From positions 17,484,001-17,548,000 of the forward strand of contig OX597824.1 of the NCBI GenBank assembly GCA_951406725.2: a stretch of 64,000 nucleotides of DNA, in the 5' to 3' direction. The stretch comes from Octopus vulgaris. Its lineage: Eukaryota. The notes below the pieces were generated by a model, which saw nothing but the letters and a program-made list of their open reading frames with translations, ran no database searches and had not been told where the DNA came from. The position numbers and the translations under genes were made by a program. Position 1 is the stretch's first letter; every line of letters begins with the position of its first letter. Of this stretch, positions 7,861 through 48,109 are shown in pieces.

Positions 7861-8008
7861 TACTGTTGTATGTATATCTTGATCGAGAAGAAATGAAATA
7901 GATGGATATACGCCAATAGAGAAGTAGTCAGCGAGATAGCGATAGACCGGTAATTAGACAGGCAGATAGACAGACAGACAGATAGATAGTTAGATAGATA
8001 AACAGATA

Positions 8009-8995
8009 ACTTTTTATTGTGGCCACACAGGGCTAAACAAAGACATAAATAATGGACGAAATACAATGTAGAGTTTTTTCTTTTCGGGGTGGGATGGGTG
8101 GTACATACAAAGAAAAAAAAAACGTTCGATCAATAGGGATCTGTGGGTTGTGTGGCGTATAAAAATATAATATATCTATATATATAAAACTGTAGTTGTG
8201 TGAGTGTCTGTCCCCTTCGATTTAGATTCCTAACTACTCCCACACTTTGCGGTGCAGTTTAACCAAATTCGGGTATCTTATAGTCGTGATTCATATCGAG
8301 CCCGTCTGAGTATTAGCGCGCGTCTACGATGAGTCTACAATTTTAAAAATAATTTAACATCATTTCTTATTCCATTTTAATGCATAATGTTTCGTGTGTC
8401 GATGGCGGCGGAGTTGGCGTCCATGGTCACACCTGCACCTGTTTGCTTCTTCCCCTTCTTCCCTCCCTCGTGAAGCTATGGGGAAGGGAGTGTAAGAAAT
8501 CAACGTCGTAATGCGTTGTCAAGGAGACCAGCGTTCTTTTAGAACAACGACTTCATGGCTTGAAGACACCAAAACAGAAATGGCTAAGAAAGCCCGAATT
8601 GGCATCTATAAGGGAAGTAACTCTCTAAAAATGCTTATATAGTTATTTCCCTTACAAACCCGAGCAACGCCGGGCGATACTGCTAGTATATATATATAAA
8701 TAAAGTTCACAGTTTAGGTGTAGCCCTGGAAAGATAACCTACAAAAAAGGCCAAGGTCACCTCAGACAGTTCGAAAATGAACATATGAGTAAGTCGCCTT
8801 ACATCTCGTTGTCTCTTTTGGTCACAGATTTACGCTTAAAGTAGTGTCGTCTTTCATACTGACCATTTTTGCCACTTTCACCCACTTTTTATTAAAACAT
8901 TCGTTCGACAAAGCCTTCCTCTCTATTCTCATCCTCCTTTTCAAGTGGTACTTGAAAAAGTTGACGAGGGACCGACCAGAGAGGAAGAGAGATTC
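8009..8995 (-). mobile_element. Tx1-clade LINE 3' fragment (copy c), interrupted by a Helitron
   Basis: 8822-8995 reverse strand reads [57 protein letters not shown], homologous to the C-terminus of ORF 40953-42695; 3' end AGCCCTGTGTGGCCACAATAAAAA abuts degenerate GATA/GACA repeats. Confidence 0.9.
8175..8686 (+). mobile_element. Non-autonomous Helitron
   Basis: A|TCTATATATATAAAAC start; 3' hairpin CCCGAGCAACGCCGGG then CGATACTGCTAG|T; inserted between A and T without TSD. Confidence 0.88.
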
Positions 8996-12021: not shown

Positions 12022-12342
12022 TTTATTTATTTATTTATGCACCCTTATCAAGCCTAGCCAGGCTCATGGGCTCGGTTTCCCGGTTTCTATGACGTATGTG
12101 TTCCCTCCCAGCTGGATGGGACGCCAGTTCATCGCAGCGTTACTCAAGAAACAGGAAGAAGGAGTGAGAGAAAGTTGTGGTGAAAGAGCACAACAGGGGT
12201 CACTACCAACCCCTGCCGGAGCCTCATGGAGCATTTAGGTGTTTTCGCTCAATAAACACACACAACGCCCGGTTTGGGAATCGAAACCGTGATCCTCCGA
12301 CCGCGAGTCCGCTGCCCTAACCACTGGGCCATTGCGCCTACA
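12022..12342 (-). mobile_element. SINE-A, tail type 1
   Basis: Head GGCGCAATGGCCCAGTGGTTAGGGCAGCGGACTCGCGGTCGGAGG..GGTTTCGATTCCC; V-domain-like CTGGCGTCCCATCCAG; (AAAT)n tail. Confidence 0.9.
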
Positions 12343-13199
12343 CAATAAGTACCTAGATTGGCTAAATTTATTTAAGGCGATGCCCTAGCTTGGTCGCAGT
12401 CTAATGACTGAAAGAAGAAAATAAGGGGGAAAAAAGGGAATGCTATGTATGGAAACAGACGAATTGAAATTATAACTAATCTTCAGTCAGTTACCACATC
12501 AAAAATCTATTCTAGCTTGTATTGGAAACTTCCATGGAATAAAGAGCTACTAGGAAATTATCCTTGTGCTTAGCACTCATGCGTGTTGCATATTTGTGCA
12601 TTTTAATGTTCACCATTGGCGTATGTATTGAATACTCTTATCGAATACGCTTCTAGGGAAACAATTTTTCTGCAAAATTTTCTATAAATTCTTTCTTGGA
12701 ATATTTTTCACACTGATATGTTCTTACATGTATAACCTATGATCCCCGCTAGGTTATTTTCAGCGTGTTTCGAATTTAAGCAAGCGATGCGTACACGAGC
12801 AAACCTCATGCAATCAGTCGCTTGAGGACCAGGAACTAGAAATTTCGAATAGTGACGAAGGCGAATTCAACTTTGTATCAATAAATAAATAAATAAGTCA
12901 AGAAATAAATATATCTTAGGATGTCTGCATATATCTAAATACCAATTCCCTCTCTTTCACTATCTCTCCCTCACTCTCCACACATACATACAAAACAAAA
13001 CACAAATTTCTACATGCACTGACGCCAAATACTGCACATATAGACAGTTACATACAAACACACATACACACACACTTGTATATATACACATACAAACAAA
13101 CAAGCGAACAAAGAGAGATCCTGTTGATATTGTTGAAATTCCAATGAAGCAATCTTGGATGTAGGTTAGAAACCGGCTCTTTCTCTATTGGCAAGAAAT

Positions 13200-15152: not shown

Positions 15153-15930
15153 ATAAAGTTCATTATTATTAACGTAAAAGAAGGTGTCTTTAACTTATAA
15201 TCAGCTAAGGCCACACTTGAAAAATCTGAGGATAATAATATGCAGTTTAATGCTGAAAAATTCCAGGCCCTGCGCTCTTAGCATCCAAAACTGAATATGA
15301 AACTTACAGGGAATTTCAATCCCAGAGCCTAAATCAATGAGGGACCTGGGTCCAAGTGCACATTACCAGGATGGCGACAAAGTGCAGACGACCGGCTGGA
15401 TGGTTCCAAAGAACAGTCAGAACCAGAGATAAGGAAACCATGATGGTCCTCTGGCGGACATACGTTAATAATAAAGTTCATTATTATTAACGTAAAAGAA
15501 GGTGTCTTTAACTTATAATCAGCTAAGGCCACACATGAAAAATCTGAGGATAATAATACGCAGTTTAATGCTGAAAAATTCCAGGCCCTGCGCTCTTAGC
15601 ATCCAAAACTGAATATGAAACTTACAGGGAATTTCAATCCCAGAGCCTAAATCAGTGAGGGACCTGGGTATCGACATGAGTGACGATGCCTCTTTCCAAG
15701 TGCACATTACCAGGATGGCGACAAAGTGCAGACGACCGGCTGGATGGTTCCAAAGAACAGTCAGAACCAGAGATAAGGAAACCATGATGGTCCTCTGGCG
15801 GACATTCGTCCTCAGCCGCCTGGATTACTGCTCACAGATATGGTCACCCACCAGTGTGAAATTAACAGGGGACCTTGAAGCAATCTAGAGAAGATTCACA
15901 AAGAAGATCGTCTCTTTGCAACAGCTCAGC
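15153..15930 (+). mobile_element. CR1-group LINE ORF2 fragment, partly tandem-duplicated with flank
   Basis: EDNNMQFNAEKFQALR..VRDLGIDMSDDASFQVHI..RTFVLSRLDYCSQIWSP..DLEAI*RRFTKKI; 15153-15461 repeated at 15471-15804. Confidence 0.88.
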
Positions 15931-16430: not shown

Positions 16431-16643
16431 AGCGCCGGAATAATAAAAAAGAAATAGCAACATAAAAATATAATGCTAAGTTAAGCTTGGACAAAAACAG
16501 AAACTGCATATTTGCATTTGCATATGTGAACGGCATTCATTGCAAAACAACAAAAAAAAGACAAATCTGTCGCGATTCTGTTGTGCATAACGTCAAGATA
16601 TTGCGTTACTGCAGTTAGAATGCACAACAGCATAAGTGTACCA

Positions 16644-17888
16644 GAACATATTGGTAACTCTGTCGCAGTGTTTCTGACTCATTAAAACAATGTAACGTTC
16701 TGTTAATAAAGTATATTTAACCGTCGAGGTCGAATCTGTCTTTTGTCCTTTTGGGGTCGATAAATTAAGTACCAGTTGCAAACAGGGGTCGATCTTATCG
16801 ACTGACCTCCTCTCCCAAAATTTCGGGTCTTGTGCCTAAAGTAGAAAAGAATATGTTGGTAACTCTGTCGCAGTGTTTCTGACTCATTAAAACAATGTAA
16901 CGTTCTGTTAATAAAGTATATTTAACCGTCGAGGTCGACTCTGCCCGTTATCGTTTCGGGGTCGATAAATTAAGTACCAGTTGCACACAGGGGTCGATCT
17001 TATCGACTGACCTCCTCTCCCCAAATTTCGGGTCTTGTGCCTAAAGTAGAAAAGAATATGTTGGTAACTCTGTCGCAGTGTTTCTGACTCATTAAAACAA
17101 TGTAACGTTCTGTTAATAAAGTATATTTAACCGTCGAGGTCGACTCTGCCCGTTATCGTTTCGGGGTCGATAAATTAAGTACCAGTTGCACACAGGGGTC
17201 GATCTTATCGACTGACCTCCTCTCCCAAAATTTCGGGTCTTGTGCCTAAAGTAGAAAAGAATATGTTGGTAACTCAGTCGCAGTGTGTCTAACTTATTAA
17301 AACAACGTGACATCCACTTAATAAAGTATATTTATCCGTCGAGGTCGACTCTGTTTTTTGTCCTTTTGGGGTCGATAAATTAAGTACCAGTTGCACACAG
17401 GGGTCGATCTTATCGACTGACCTCCTCTCCCAAAATTTCGGGTCTTGTGCCTAAAGTAGAAAAGAATATGTTGGTAACTCAGTCGCAGTGTGTCTAACTT
17501 ATTAAAACAATGTGACATCCACTTAATAAAGTAAATTTATCCGTCGAGGTCGACTCTGTTTTTTGTCCTTTTGGGGTCGATAAATTAAGTACCAGTTGCA
17601 AACAGGGGTCGATCTTATCGACTGACCTCCTCTCCCAAAATTTCGGGTCTTGTGCCTAGAGTAGAAAAGAATATATTGGTAACTCAGTCGCAGTGTGTCT
17701 CACTTATTAAAACAATGTGACATCCACTTAATAAAGTTTATTTATCCGTCGAGGTCGACTCTGTCTTTTGTCCTTTTGGGGTCGATAAATTAAGTACCAG
17801 TTGCGCACAGAGGTCGATCTTATAGACTGGCTCCTCCCCGCCAAATTTCGGGCCTTTTGCCGAGAATAGAAAATAATAAAGTATATTT
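16644..17888 (+). repeat. Six-unit 205-bp tandem array, each unit ~70 bp flank plus 3' half of SINE-B (tail-2)
   Basis: TTGGTAACTC recurs at 16651, 16856, 17061, 17266, 17471, 17676. Confidence 0.97.
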
Positions 17889-40329: not shown

Positions 40330-40373
40330 ATAACATAGGCAGATAGATGGATGGATGAATAGATAGATAGCTG

Positions 40374-40438
<65 letters not shown>

Positions 40439-40587
40439 ATAGATAAGTAGATAGATGGATAGATAGAAAGAGAGAAAAAGAGAAAAAGAGAGGTGAGTGT
40501 ACGCTGGAAACTGATAAACATACATAGAGACAGACAGAGAAACAGGTAGATAGATAAATCGGTAGATAGATAGACAGACAGACAGAC

Positions 40588-40648
<61 letters not shown>
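40330..40648. repeat. (GATA)n/(GACA)n tracts around a unique spacer; left flank of Tx1 copy a
   Basis: 40429-40648 is repeated at 43906-~44118. Confidence 0.95.
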
Positions 40649-40649
<1 letters not shown>

Positions 40650-43600
40650 CTTTCTTTTATTAGCCACACAGGGCTGAATACAGAGGGGACAAATACAAAT
40701 GCAGAGCTTTTCTTTTCGAGGGTGGAAAAAAATTAAAAAATGTAAGATTGCGATCAAAAGGGATCGAGAGGAGGAAAAAAAGGAAAAAAAAAAGGAATCG
40801 TGTATCACAGAAATAATGATGTAAACATTGATATAACAAGATTGGGTTCATCCGTGGGAAGAAAAGCCTACAGAAAAGACCACGGGAACCCCAGTCAGGG
40901 AGGAAATAACCACATGAGATCAAAAATGCTCTCTTTCTTTCTTTTTTACGATCTACAGGATCATGCTCAAAATGGTTTCGTTACTAGCACGCACCATCTT
41001 TGCAACATTCACCCATCTTTTTTTGAATCTTTCGCGAGACAAAACTTCCCTCTCCATTCTCACCTTCCTTTTCAAGTGGTACTTGAAAAAGTTGATGAGC
41101 GATTGGCCAGAGAGGTAAGTGTTTGTCTCTAATCCTTTCGCTCGAGTCCACCACACACATTCTTTCACCATGGCCACCAGTACGATGAAAACTGCCTTGC
41201 CTTCCCGGTTGAGGGAAGGGGGCGGACCAATTCTCACGATAGACTCGGCCGATAGGCGGATTCGTCCCACACGTGACAGCAGCCGTTCGGCATAAGCCCA
41301 CAGGTCGGAAATGGTTGGACATTGCACGAGTGTGTGCAGAACGGTTTCGTCGCTCTGACCGCATCTCGGGCAAGTCGGTCCAGTGTGTTTGGAACCGTGT
41401 CTGTAGAGCTTATCCCGAACAGGTAATGCTTCTCGATAGCACTGCCAGGCCAGGGATCTTTGGTGATTGTTCATAGGTCCCGGCCCGAAAGTTGTCCTGA
41501 ACAGGCGGGTCAGGTGTTCCTCGTCGACGCCCAGACTCTGCCCGAGTTCGTCGTCGCACCTCCCCTCCACTAATCCTCTATAGAATGCCTTTGTTGTGAT
41601 GGAGTCGCACAAGTTCGATCCCGGACGGCAGAGTTGCTTGAGAGCAACGCGACACTCGCGGTGCCATTCGCCTAGCCTCGGTCTCTGCTTGATCCATGAC
41701 TGTAGTTCGTCCAAGGAGACGAGCTGCGGGAAAGCGCGCCGCACAAAAGGCGACCACCCCTGTTCACCGTTGTCTATGAAGCGCCGGAGATGTCGCAGTC
41801 TCAGCGCATGTCTGCGCATCATCAACCACGGCATGCCCAGCCCTCCATTTAGCGGGTGTTGGCAGCAAATGGATCGCCTAACCATCGGAACGTTTCCCTT
41901 CCACAAGAAGCGGAAGAGTATGCGTTCCAGTTTGGTGATGGTAGGGTCGGGACAAGGCACGACGGTCAGACGATACTCGATGACGGATGCGATGTACGCG
42001 TTCGCCACCTCCGCCCGACCTTTTAGGGATAGCTTTCTCTCAGTCCATTTCTGGGTGAGAGTAGCCACCCTAGTCGTTATCTCGCCCCAGTTCTTCTCCA
42101 TTTGGAGGTCCGGACCGAACCAGACCCCGAGCAATTTAACCGGTCCGTCCGTCCAGCGTCCCACGATGGAGACGCTGTTGGACGGCATGGGCTTGCTTCT
42201 CCAGGTGCCGAGCCGCAAGCCCACTGACTTTTCCCGGTTAATTTTTGCTCCCGTTACCGCTTCGTATTCTTTCAGTGTCTCGCCGACCAGCTCGATGTGC
42301 TCGTAGCTCGACACTATGACGGTGACGTCATCCGCGTATGCAGACACGCTCCTCCCGCATCCCAGCTCTCGTGGGATGCCCCTCAGCGTCGCCAGTTTCC
42401 GCAGTAGTGGCTCAAGAGTCAGTACATACAGCAGCGATGAGAGGGGGCATCCCTGACGAACCGAACGCATGATGTTAAAAGGTCTGGATAGATGACCATT
42501 TACGCGAACTACTGAGCGGATGCCGCTGTATAAGGCAGCGATCCAACCGCGGAAAACTGGACCGAAACCAGCCGCTTTGAGGACAGCCTCCAAGTAGTGA
42601 TGGTCTACCCTATCGAAGGCTTTTGATTGATCCAAATTGATCAGCGCCCCAACCATGCCAGGATTTTTAACTACCCTGTCTATGATGTAGCGCATCAGAT
42701 GGAGGTTGTCATGAATACTTCTACGGCACGGCGCATGTTTGCGCCTTGTCGATTAGTTTCTTGATGACAAGCGCCAACCTCTCGGCTAACACCTTGGCCA
42801 AAATTTTCAAATCTGCGTTGAGCAGAGTGATGGGCCTGAAATTATCTATGACGTCCCCCTTGTTTGGGTCTTTCTTGATCAGTGCCACTGCTCCTCGCTT
42901 TACAAAAGCAGGAATACTCCCGTTCTGCTGCCAGTTGCAGTAGACAGCTGCCAAGACGCCTCCAAACAAGTCTGGCATATGAAAATAAAATTCGTAGGGC
43001 AGACCATCCAAGCCTGGTGACTTGTCTCTCGCGCAGCCTACCATCGCATCCTGTACGTCCGCAGCTGTGATAGGCTTTTCACAAGACTCCACCTCCCTTG
43101 CTGAGAGTCGTGGCAAGGCATGCAGGTAGGCACTAAAGTCCACTCTGCTTTCTGACTCACCACTTGTCCCAAACAGTTGGGTGAAGTGTTGTTGAAAAAC
43201 CCCACACATCCTTTTAGGCTCGAGCAATTCGCGCCCCTGTTCATCTATAAGAGACTTGATGGTGGCTCTGTTGCCTCGTTGCGTCTCCACCACTCGGGCC
43301 TCTTGGGCGGCTCCAACTCCTTCGTTCCTCAGAGCACGCATCCTAGCTCTGACAACGCATCCCTCGTGTTTGGCGTTGAGGTGTTGGTCGAGGGCCAATC
43401 TCGCCGCCAGTACGTTGGACGCGATACCAGTTCTAAGTGCCTCTTCTAAAACCTTAACTAATTCTCCCTCTATTCTATTTCGGTCTAATGCTAGGGCTCT
43501 AGTGTATCTGACTGATTCTGCTTTAATCGCTTTTTTTAGGGCATACCACCATCTGTTGTTGATGATGGTACCCGTCAAAGCTCTCTTAACTAATGTGCTG

Positions 43601-43905
43601 ATCCGGTCCCTGTAAACCTGTCGTGCTGTAAAAGACGCGTTCAGTTTCCAGTAACCAGGACCCTGCCTATGTGTCTTATCTAAGTCAAGTGTACAAGTCA
43701 CAAACTTGTGATCTGTGTAACTGACTATATGAAATTGTGGACAACCTACACTATTTTTATCTATTGTCCTACAGAATACTCTATCTAAGTATGATCTGGA
43801 CGACCCGATGCGGTTACTCCATGTCCACATTGGCACATTCGGGTGGTCCAGTCGGTACCTGTCAGACAGTTGGAAACGTCTGAGCAGGTCTTTGAGGCAT
43901 TTGCA
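40649..43905 (-). mobile_element. Tx1-clade (L1 group) LINE, 5'-truncated, copy a
   Basis: ORF2 from the end of the APE endonuclease through RT and CCHC domain, plus ~300-bp 3' UTR; long flanking direct repeat. Confidence 0.96.
40953..43905 (-). pseudogene. Tx1 ORF2 (partial endonuclease, RT, zinc knuckle) with one frameshift at ~42720
   Basis: SRSYLDRVF..YTDHKFV, GPGYWKLN, KSPGLDGLPYEFY, NFRPITLLNADLKILAK, LDQSKAFDRVDH, VRQGCPLS, AYADD, CPRC..H....C; CAVP|RSIHDNLHLMRY continues in another frame. Confidence 0.96.
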
Positions 43906-44064
43906 AGATAGATAGATAGATAAGTAGATAGATGGATAGATAGAAAGAGAGAAAAAGAGAAAGAGAGAGGTGAGTGTACGCTGGAAACTGATAAACATAC
44001 ATAGAGACAGACAGAGAAACAGGTAGATAGATAAATAGGTAGATAGATAGACAGACAGACAGAC

Positions 44065-44118
<54 letters not shown>

Positions 44119-44119
44119 G

Positions 44120-44151
<32 letters not shown>

Positions 44152-44165
44152 TAGATAGATAGATA

Positions 44166-44790
44166 TGTTTCTTTATTAGCCACACAGGGCTGCACACAGA
44201 TAGAACAAATTACAAGGTAGAGCTTTTCTTTTGGGGGTAAAAATAGGAGAGTGGTGGTTTTCGATCAAAAGGGATCGTAAAAGGAAAGTAAAAGGACAAA
44301 AAAAGGGGGGGGTTAAAAAAGGGGGATAGAAAAAAATGAATAATAGGGATCGTTATCACAGAAATGTCAATATGAAGTGTAAAGGGGAGGACAGGTGAGG
44401 TTTACCCGTGGAAAGAAAAGCCTACGGAAAAGACCACGGTAACCTCGGTCAATGAAGTCACATTTTGTATATTTTTTTTTTTTTTTTTTGCAAATAAGCA
44501 ACTCTCTGTATTAATTTTTATGGTTCATAGAATCATAGTCAAGGTGGCTTCGTCATTCATACGTGCCATCCTTGCTACATTCACCCATCTTTTTTTAAAA
44601 CATTCACTAGACAAAACTTGCCTCTCTACTCTCACTTTCCTCTTCAAGTGATACTTGAAGAAGTTGATGAGAGATTGACCAGAGAGGAAAGTGTTTGTCT
44701 CTAATCCTTTCAGGCGCGTCCACCAGATACATTCTTTCGCCATAGTCACAAGTATGATAAAAATAGCTCTTCCTTCCCGTTTGAAGGAAG
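44166..44790 (-). mobile_element. Tx1-clade LINE 3' fragment, copy b (different subfamily)
   Basis: [48 protein letters not shown]; distinct 3' UTR; (GATA)n on both sides. Confidence 0.94.
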
Positions 44791-44855
<65 letters not shown>

Positions 44856-44901
44856 GATAGGTAGATAGATAGATAGATAGATAGGTAGATAGATAGATAG
44901 T

Positions 44902-45000
<99 letters not shown>
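44791..45000. repeat. (GATA)n microsatellite
   Basis: Direct inspection. Confidence 0.97.
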
Positions 45001-45355: not shown

Positions 45356-45716
45356 TGAGCGAAGCGGTCTTCGTCCCATTAGTGCGAGAAGTCCGAAACG
45401 TGGTCCTTTGCTATTCGTAAGACCCGCAGAAGAGAAATCAGGTCAACCCCGCGACACCGAGAGCATCGACGGATGGATGAATGCGCATCTAGGCTCAGCG
45501 GTTGCATAGGAAGTCGGGGACAAGAAACAGGAAGAAAGAATGAGAGAAAATTGGAGCGAAACAGTACAACAGGGGTCACCACCACCCCCTGCTGGAGCTT
45601 CGTGGAGCTTTAGGTGTTTTCGCTCAATAAACACACACAACGCCCGGTCTGGTAATCGAAACCGCGATCCTCCGACCGCGAGTCCGCTGCCCTAACCACT
45701 GGGCCATTGCGCCTCC
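45356..45716 (-). mobile_element. SINE-A, tail type 3
   Basis: Same head; 3' module CCGACTTCCTATGCAACCGCTGAGCC..GGGTCTTACGAATAGCAAAGGACCACGTTTCGG; TGATGTTGATGC on both flanks. Confidence 0.88.
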
Positions 45717-45854
45717 TGATGTTGATGCCGGCTGCTTAGCTTTAGGTGACATCTGAACCACTATACATGTAACCAAAAGCTATTTAAATTTCATTTTGTT
45801 TGCCAGACGTTTTAAATCTAGTACTACATTATCCACCGGGTAATATATTTCATA

Positions 45855-46175
45855 GTGGAGGCGCAATGTCCCAGTGGTTAGGGCAGCGGACTCGCGCTCG
45901 GAGGATCGCGGTTTCTATTCCCAGACCGGGCCTTGCGTGTGTCTATTGAGCGAAAACACCTAAAGTTCCACGAGGCTCCGGCATGGGGTTGGTAGTGACC
46001 CCTGTTGTACTCTTTCGCCCCCAACTTTCTCTCTCTCTTCCTGCTTCTTGAGTACAGCTGCGATAGACTGGCGTCCCGTCCAGATGGGGCGGGGGTACTC
46101 ATACTCCACAGACACCGGGAAACCGGGCCCATGAACCTGGCTAGCCTTGAAAAGGGTACATAAATAAAATAAAAA
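45855..46175 (+). mobile_element. SINE-A, tail type 1
   Basis: Colinear with 12022-12342; TSD TATTTCATA. Confidence 0.9.
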
Positions 46176-47213: not shown

Positions 47214-47597
47214 GGAAGCACTCCGTCGGTTACGACGACGAGGGTTCCGGTTGATCCGAATCAACAGAACAGCCTGCTCGTGAAATTAACGTGTAAGTGG
47301 CTGAGCACTCCACAGACACGTGTACCCTTAACGTAGTTCTCGGGGATATTCAGCGTGACACAGAGAGTGACAAGGCCGGCCCCTTGAAATACAGGTACAA
47401 CAGAAACAGGAAGTAAGAGTGAGAGAAAGTTGTGGTGAAAGAGTACAGTAGGGATCACCACCATCCCCTGCCGGAGCCTCGTGGAGCTTTAGGTGTTTTC
47501 ACTCAATAAACACTCACAACGTCCGGTCTGGGAATCGAAACCGCGATCCTATGACCGCGAGTCCGCTGCCCTAACCACTGGGCCATTGCGCCTCCAC
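47214..47597 (-). mobile_element. SINE-A, tail type 2, full length
   Basis: Perfect 17-bp TSD ACTTTTAAAGACTTAGT (47197-47213, 47598-47614). Confidence 0.94.
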
Positions 47598-48109
47598 ACT
47601 TTTAAAGACTTAGTAGGGGAGTAAAGAACAGTGCTACTGCCACATTTAAAAGACTTTGGAACTAATGACGCGAAAGAAGGGGGTAATTCAGAGATCTCAG
47701 ATGTGGTCGGAATGCTCGACATGCAAGTTACACGCGGTTATATATGAATGGAGTAGTGGTTTGAACCACCGACCATCGATGCAAAAAAAAAAAGCAAAGC
47801 TGACCGCGGCAGGATTGGAACTCGGAAAGTACAGAACCGGAAGAAATACCACAAAGAATTTTAGCTGACGCGATTGCGTTTCTGCCAACAGCAATGAACA
47901 ATAGTAGATAAATATGAGGAGTAGGTAAGAATTGAACTATGAATCACTATTCCAAAATATACACTAACAAAACAAGATCTCTTTTTGTTTTGTTCCTTTT
48001 AGTGGCCAGCGACATCTTGAGAGATGTAAGTATCTGTAGATAAATATTTCTGAAACGTCGCTATTGTCAACAAGAGCGAAATGACAACAATAAAACAGGA
48101 AATAACGAT

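Follow-up and report, generated by a model that had tools for sequence, protein, structure and literature searches.

A 5'-truncated Tx1-like LINE, here named E1, is bracketed in the 64,000-nt stretch of DNA under study (the window) by two nearly identical copies of one segment, S1 on its 3' side and S2 on its truncated 5' side. The repeat abuts the element at the point of truncation, matches it in age and is found in two copies in the window, so that it behaves like a long target-site duplication; most likely, the E1 case is a one-off event of this type, which is a rare but known outcome of LINE insertion. The features that need to be considered are listed below in window coordinates, with the strand given for the element copies.

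40341..40437, left GATA tract, of which 40374-40437 are 16 pure units; the start of the duplicated segment lies 9 nt inside its right edge
40429..40648, S1, copy 1 of the duplicated segment, on the 3' side of E1, with a terminal (GATA)15 at 40589-40648
40649..43905, minus strand, E1, Tx1-like LINE with 3' UTR (about 40649-40952) and RT and zf-RVT domains; 5'-truncated, one frameshift
43906..44118, S2, copy 2 of the duplicated segment, adjoining the truncated 5' end of E1, with a terminal (GATA)13 and a spurious ATG at 43998
44118..44165, extra GGTA-GATA-GACA-GATA unit that repeats 44038-44117 and is absent from S1
44166..44790, minus strand, E2, a 3' fragment of 625 nt, older than E1 and either from the family of E1 or from a sister family, with GATA on both sides, 81% identical to E1 (215/264 aligned)
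44791..45000, GATA array next to E2, on its 5' side
8006..8989, minus strand, E3, a third 3' fragment, interrupted and degraded, with a degenerate GACA/GATA run at its 3' end

The duplicated segment and its junctions with E1

Self-comparison of the window yielded an ungapped match between 40429-40648 and 43906-44125, at an offset of 3477, with 4 mismatches over 220 nt (pairs 40438/43915, 40486/43963, 40560/44037 and 40642/44119; BLAST E, 3e-110). The first 213 nt (40429-40641 versus 43906-44118) contain 3 substitutions and are 98.6% identical, confirming the first-pass annotation, in which the segment was described as recurring at 43906-~44118 with about three substitutions. The non-repetitive core that was pointed out on that occasion is also borne out: the inner 84 nt between the GATA/GACA tracts (40462-40545), of which the core is part, differ at 1/84 positions, and with 40455-40570 as the query the only full-length matches in the 64-kb window were S1 and S2 themselves. 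With low-complexity filtering, the window contained 4 dispersed pairs with a length of at least 60 nt and an identity of at least 95%, of which S1/S2 was the longest. The right-hand GATA tract comprises 15 units in S1 and 13 in S2; the duplication is about 212 nt long if this tract belonged to the target and at least 160 nt long if the tract is the tail of E1 itself. Chance similarity of microsatellites as the source of the match is ruled out by the 83/84 identity of the inner part. A pair of LTRs was also rejected, since the Pfam matches included neither an integrase nor an LTR-type RT and since, on either outer side, the repeat passes into the flanking array without a break.

S2 contains, at 43998, a minus-strand ATG that shares the reading frame of the endonuclease fragment of E1; it is a false ORF start created by the duplicate, as had been proposed from the letters alone. 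At 44038-44165, a compound GATA/GACA unit of 80 nt is followed by a head-to-tail repeat of itself without an element in between; from this 48-nt repeat beside S2 it appears that the GATA array duplicates its own pieces also without insertion.

The 5' junction was compared by eye with contigs from three runs (15, 21 and 14 contigs, with a consensus agreement of 0.69-0.73). The related family contigs match 12/16 of the last bases of E1, including all of the final 6, and then diverge from the window beyond 43905, which places the truncation at 43905, with S2 beginning at the next base. As far as a related-subfamily consensus with an agreement of approximately 0.7 can tell, the 5' join would have been made with neither microhomology nor extra bases. 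On the 3' side, the repeat abuts E1 within 0-8 nt, inside the GATA tract. S2 starts with 10 nt of pure GATA; in S1, position 40438 belongs to an AATA variant (pair 40438/43915). This difference may reflect either a later mutation or a join made through GATA units.

The divergence between S1 and S2 is 1.4% (3/213; 95% range, 0.3-4.1%). In approximately 1 kb, E1 has at least 3 positions at which 88-100% of the family depth carries another base in all three runs (a lower bound, being drawn from 40 of 69 rows), and with a divergence of 0.3-1% per copy 1.3-4.3 differences between S1 and S2 are expected. By contrast, the divergence between E1 and E2 (49/264, 19%) would predict approximately 40 differences where 3 are seen, so that the duplication must be far younger than E2; an old tandem duplication of the segment together with the element was rejected on the same count. 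The sequence comparisons thus indicate a duplication about as old as the insertion of E1, within a wide interval. The 1.4% difference between the copies could also be allelic, leaving room for exchange between homologues.

E1 and its family

E1 retains a reverse transcriptase domain (PF00078, E, 1.7e-21) and the C-terminal zinc-binding zf-RVT domain (PF13966, E, 3.6e-8), with a frameshift near 42722-42727 and zero stop codons in either frame segment. Truncation took place inside the endonuclease, at approximately residue 162 of a 1153-residue relative, with loss of ORF1 and of the 5' UTR. The endonuclease fragment, of which the C-terminal part only is left, gave no Pfam match of its own, and it aligns with residues 161-258 of a related protein (P0121; E, 1e-12) that contains an APE domain (PF03372). 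In phmmer searches, E1 scored 175 bits against the ORF2 product of Xenopus Tx1 (YTX2_XENLA, P0229) as opposed to 75-76 bits against L1 ORF2p and 43-50 bits against R2, identifying it as Tx1-like. A quick RT tree of 21 rows, built with no L1 outgroup, groups E1 with an Argonauta protein and 3 others (support, 100), this group being sister to vertebrate Tx1 at a support of only 81 in the same outgroup-free tree. The best animal-named match is from Argonauta hians (64%), from which we infer an octopod host.

In three contig sets, 2291, 1481 and 2146 records align to 1.2 kb of E1, of which 499, 178 and 375, respectively, are at least 99% alike; the summed contig depth over E1 is not a copy number. 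Judging from these alignments, E1 is a member of an abundant family with close relatives.

All three family copies in the window (3/3) abut a GATA/GACA run with their 3' end, which corresponds to two independent sites given that E1 and E2 share one array, and such runs cover 1.4% of the 64-kb window. At the 5' end GATA is found in 2/3 copies, and the 5' end of E3 runs into a degenerate GACA/GATT stretch. The family may target GATA, with a (TATC)n tail as the alternative source of the GATA at the 3' ends. Within 40341-45000, E1 and E2, of very different ages, lie in one GATA array, 260 nt apart and in the same orientation.

Other Tx1 families are reported to target microsatellites, namely, Kibi in (TC)n, Koshi in (TTC)n and crocodilian Tx1 in (TTCC)n/(TTTC)n (PMC4494074). 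As in these elements, the Tx1-like ends of the E1 family abut a simple repeat; the former are found in pyrimidine repeats, whereas the E1 family is associated with (TATC)n/(GATA)n, likely in an octopod host, and with target and tail not fully separable. The criterion applied to Kibi and Koshi is that more than 20% of the family flanks consist of the repeat at both ends (PMC4494074); here the values are 3/3 for the 3' end and 2/3 for the 5' end, out of three copies only, two of which are in one array. For Octopus vulgaris, 421 insertions from 13 L1-Tx1 families with recent activity have been described, in a paper whose main text is silent on target sites (PMC13282606). No report of a Tx1 element targeting GATA/TATC or of a long Tx1 duplication was found in the main texts of the openly accessible literature. 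GATA/TATC may therefore be an unreported Tx1 target, although Repbase or the supplements of PMC4494074 and PMC13282606 may already list a Tx1 family that targets GATA; what is mildly new here is that octopods would have a Tx1 family associated with this repeat.

The flanks of the other members, for which the first-pass annotation had called, were compared in the window. Those of E2 share pure GATA only (54 nt), which makes a duplication unmeasurable there, and those of E3 show no long duplication, their best exact shared word being 9 nt; since E3 is old, this absence is weak evidence. Of three copies, E1 has a long duplication, E2 cannot be measured and the old E3 has none, which lends no support to the earlier claim that each insertion would duplicate its own target. 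Searches of sequence collections gave no additional family locus with usable flanks: a 20-nt 3'-end pattern found 2 loci in metagenome contigs, both chance matches without element or GATA, and protein-based locus searches confirmed 0/52 and then 3/21 candidates in genome contigs (the 3 from one locus, L003) and 0/3 in viral contigs.

Origin of the duplication

The anatomy, the truncation point and the relative ages are observed, whereas all of the nicking and joining is inferred; we lean, on somewhat better than even terms, towards S1/S2 being a long target-site duplication made once, at the insertion of E1, with a distant second nick. With this assumption, the endonuclease of the element would nick the tract that now ends at 40648/44117, on its GATA strand and close to its right end, and reverse transcription would be primed at this nick. 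Synthesis would stop inside the endonuclease gene, at the observed position 43905, the cDNA end would be joined without microhomology to a nick or break in the opposite strand approximately 212 nt away, probably pre-existing or host-made, and fill-in would copy the segment to both sides of E1. The three substitutions and the two-unit change of the tract would have arisen later, and the far end would lie in GATA mainly since the whole site is GATA-rich. Against this course speak the pure-GATA start of S2, which a GATA-guided switch would also give, and the element-free 48-nt repeat adjoining S2.

A possible but rather doubtful explanation, the nearest to that of the first-pass annotation, is that the second end was guided by the tracts, in that the neighbouring GATA tract was cut by the element nuclease, or cDNA extended by a few GATA units annealed there, on the same, sister or homologous chromatid, with a length of the duplication that would follow the tract spacing. 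The distance from the left end of the segment to the edge of the left tract is indeed 9-19 nt at most, S2 lacks the AATA variant of S1 and opens with pure GATA, the 5' junction is in GATA in 2/3 copies, and bridging of sister chromatids by L1 cDNA has been proposed for a tandem duplication in a tumour (PMC7058536). However, GATA runs occupy 129/281 of the positions 20-300 nt away (46%; 89/241, 37%, outside the right tract), 20-27% of those up to 500 nt away and 13% of those up to 1 kb away, so that, with a local share of 20-46% by chance, a left end in GATA carries little weight, and the right end in GATA is accounted for by the family habit, as 3/3 family 3' ends are in GATA. Furthermore, the first nick would be in GATA and the second in TATC, on the opposite strand, so that the two nicked sequences would differ. 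For the second site, a much lower specificity is reported of APE endonucleases (PMC6895275), although R1Bm recognises both its sites (PMC1919474), a precedent that makes recognition of two sequences possible. E3 is without a long duplication and a single case cannot establish a rule. It is quite unlikely, in our estimate, that an octopod Tx1 family would have GATA arrays as its target and, as a routine, use the next GATA tract for the resolution of its second end. Thus, of the earlier reading, the target-site duplication around a Tx1 element is supported, as judged from abutment, age and the presence of two copies, whereas its proposal that both nicks fell in GATA tracts, whose spacing fixed the length, is not supported in view of the local GATA share, of E3 and of the TATC strand.

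The same final order of parts would result from two steps: E1 would first have inserted in the right tract with a short duplication of the ordinary kind, after which GATA tracts of chromosomes with and without E1 would have undergone unequal exchange. The internal duplication of the array without an element (44038-44117 versus 44118-44165) provides a local precedent, and the 3 differences between S1 and S2 could be allelic; however, the 3-4 GATA units at the junction offer scant homology for a crossover, and two rare events of similar age would be required, which makes this course unlikely. The S1/S2 divergence is also within the range that alleles could show if two haplotypes had been joined through GATA tracts during assembly. 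Such a join would have had to occur through only approximately 16 nt of GATA and exactly at the truncation of E1, and to leave copies that differ in 3 bases and in tract length, so that an artefact is regarded as very unlikely. Finally, S1 lies 3' of E1 and S2, formally, 3' of E2, as if the family carried the segment along by 3' transduction or as a repeat dispersed with its copies. This last explanation is scarcely credible: E1 and E2 are 81% alike against 98.6% for S1 and S2, E3 is without the segment, there is no third copy in the window, and transduction accounts for one copy but not for copies at both ends.

R9 elements, whose nuclease is restriction-like, resemble E1 in having a long duplication around a non-LTR element in a natural genome; they are rDNA-specific with a reported 126-bp stagger, whereas E1 is of the APE type and its duplication is one case of three. 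The 126-bp duplication made by R9 of bdelloid rotifers (cited in PMC9977147 and PMC6895275) is the precedent that the first-pass annotation had rightly invoked. The RTE precedent named together with it was not found in passages from PMC1291365 and PMC2887409, where the RTE copies have duplications of 10-20 bp. The latter is also the usual size for APE LINEs (PMC6895275). Duplications of more than 100 bp have been reported for up to 10% of L1 insertions in HeLa cells, a share that rises to 57-91% when the cells are NER-deficient; as a model, the authors speculate that an unrelated nick at a distance is involved (PMC5223499). These human L1 cases are close to E1 in that an APE-type LINE is involved, the listed sizes of 242-277 bp match and a distal second nick is proposed; they were obtained in cultured cells, mostly NER-deficient, whereas E1 is a natural insertion of a Tx1-like element in a microsatellite array (PMC5223499). 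Dualen-4b_cRei of Chlamydomonas, with long duplications in more than half of its insertions (median, 900 bp), shares with E1 variable long duplications on both sides of a LINE insertion (PMC9977147). There they are a family trait, possibly due to two nucleases, whereas the relatives of E1 carry an APE domain only and a family trait is not demonstrated. Also HERV-K (HML-2), for which 250- and 111-bp duplications are reported, the former confirmed by empty-site sequencing (PMC5488345), shows rare long duplications in a class that normally makes short ones, although, unlike E1, it is an integrase-based LTR element.

As a single event, E1 adds a case from nature to an outcome of LINE insertion that is rare but known. 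A caution for annotation also follows, as S2 creates a false ORF start and repeat searches capped at approximately 50 bp would miss the duplication. The choice of the second strand is the least understood step of LINE integration, so that a family rule, if true, would matter more: an APE-only LINE would make long duplications as a family trait, adding hundreds of bases per jump, and by multiplying its landing sites it would have helped the compound microsatellite arrays of octopus genomes to grow. A family with hundreds of young copies, such as may be found among the 421 recently active L1-Tx1 insertions of Octopus vulgaris (PMC13282606), would make such a rule testable by a genome survey.

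Distant relatives and other repeats

The locus L003 (1-13233), on a contig assigned to an Arenicella metagenome-assembled genome, is a head-to-tail array with a unit of approximately 6.55 kb containing an intact Tx1-like element, 94% identical to P0121 and a 45% relative, with no microsatellite at its ends and no Rfam target; Rfam gave zero matches on both this locus and the window. L003 is likely animal contamination and a tandem-forming relative. A 1.8-kb contig assigned to Herbaspirillum sp. encodes a 63% relative (P0005) and is likely animal contamination of a bacterial assembly.

A SINE-like repeat of approximately 184 nt is abundant in the window and often in tandem (5614, 11736, 14180, 19602, 33583, 35472, 52433 and others); by its look, it may carry a tRNA box and a Nin domain. 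Its 3' approximately 45 nt are common to the Tx1 family (76-88% identity), it has no GATA flanks, and with a related Tx1 it likely forms a LINE-SINE pair. A six-copy tandem array of 205 nt (94% matches) at 16643-17878 is related to it. A tandem pair of approximately 320 nt (91%) is present at 15153-15809. An inverted repeat at 45584-45989 has 133-nt arms that are 92% complementary and separated by 140 nt; copies related to it lie near 12026-12346 and 47402-47598, and it is possibly a MITE.
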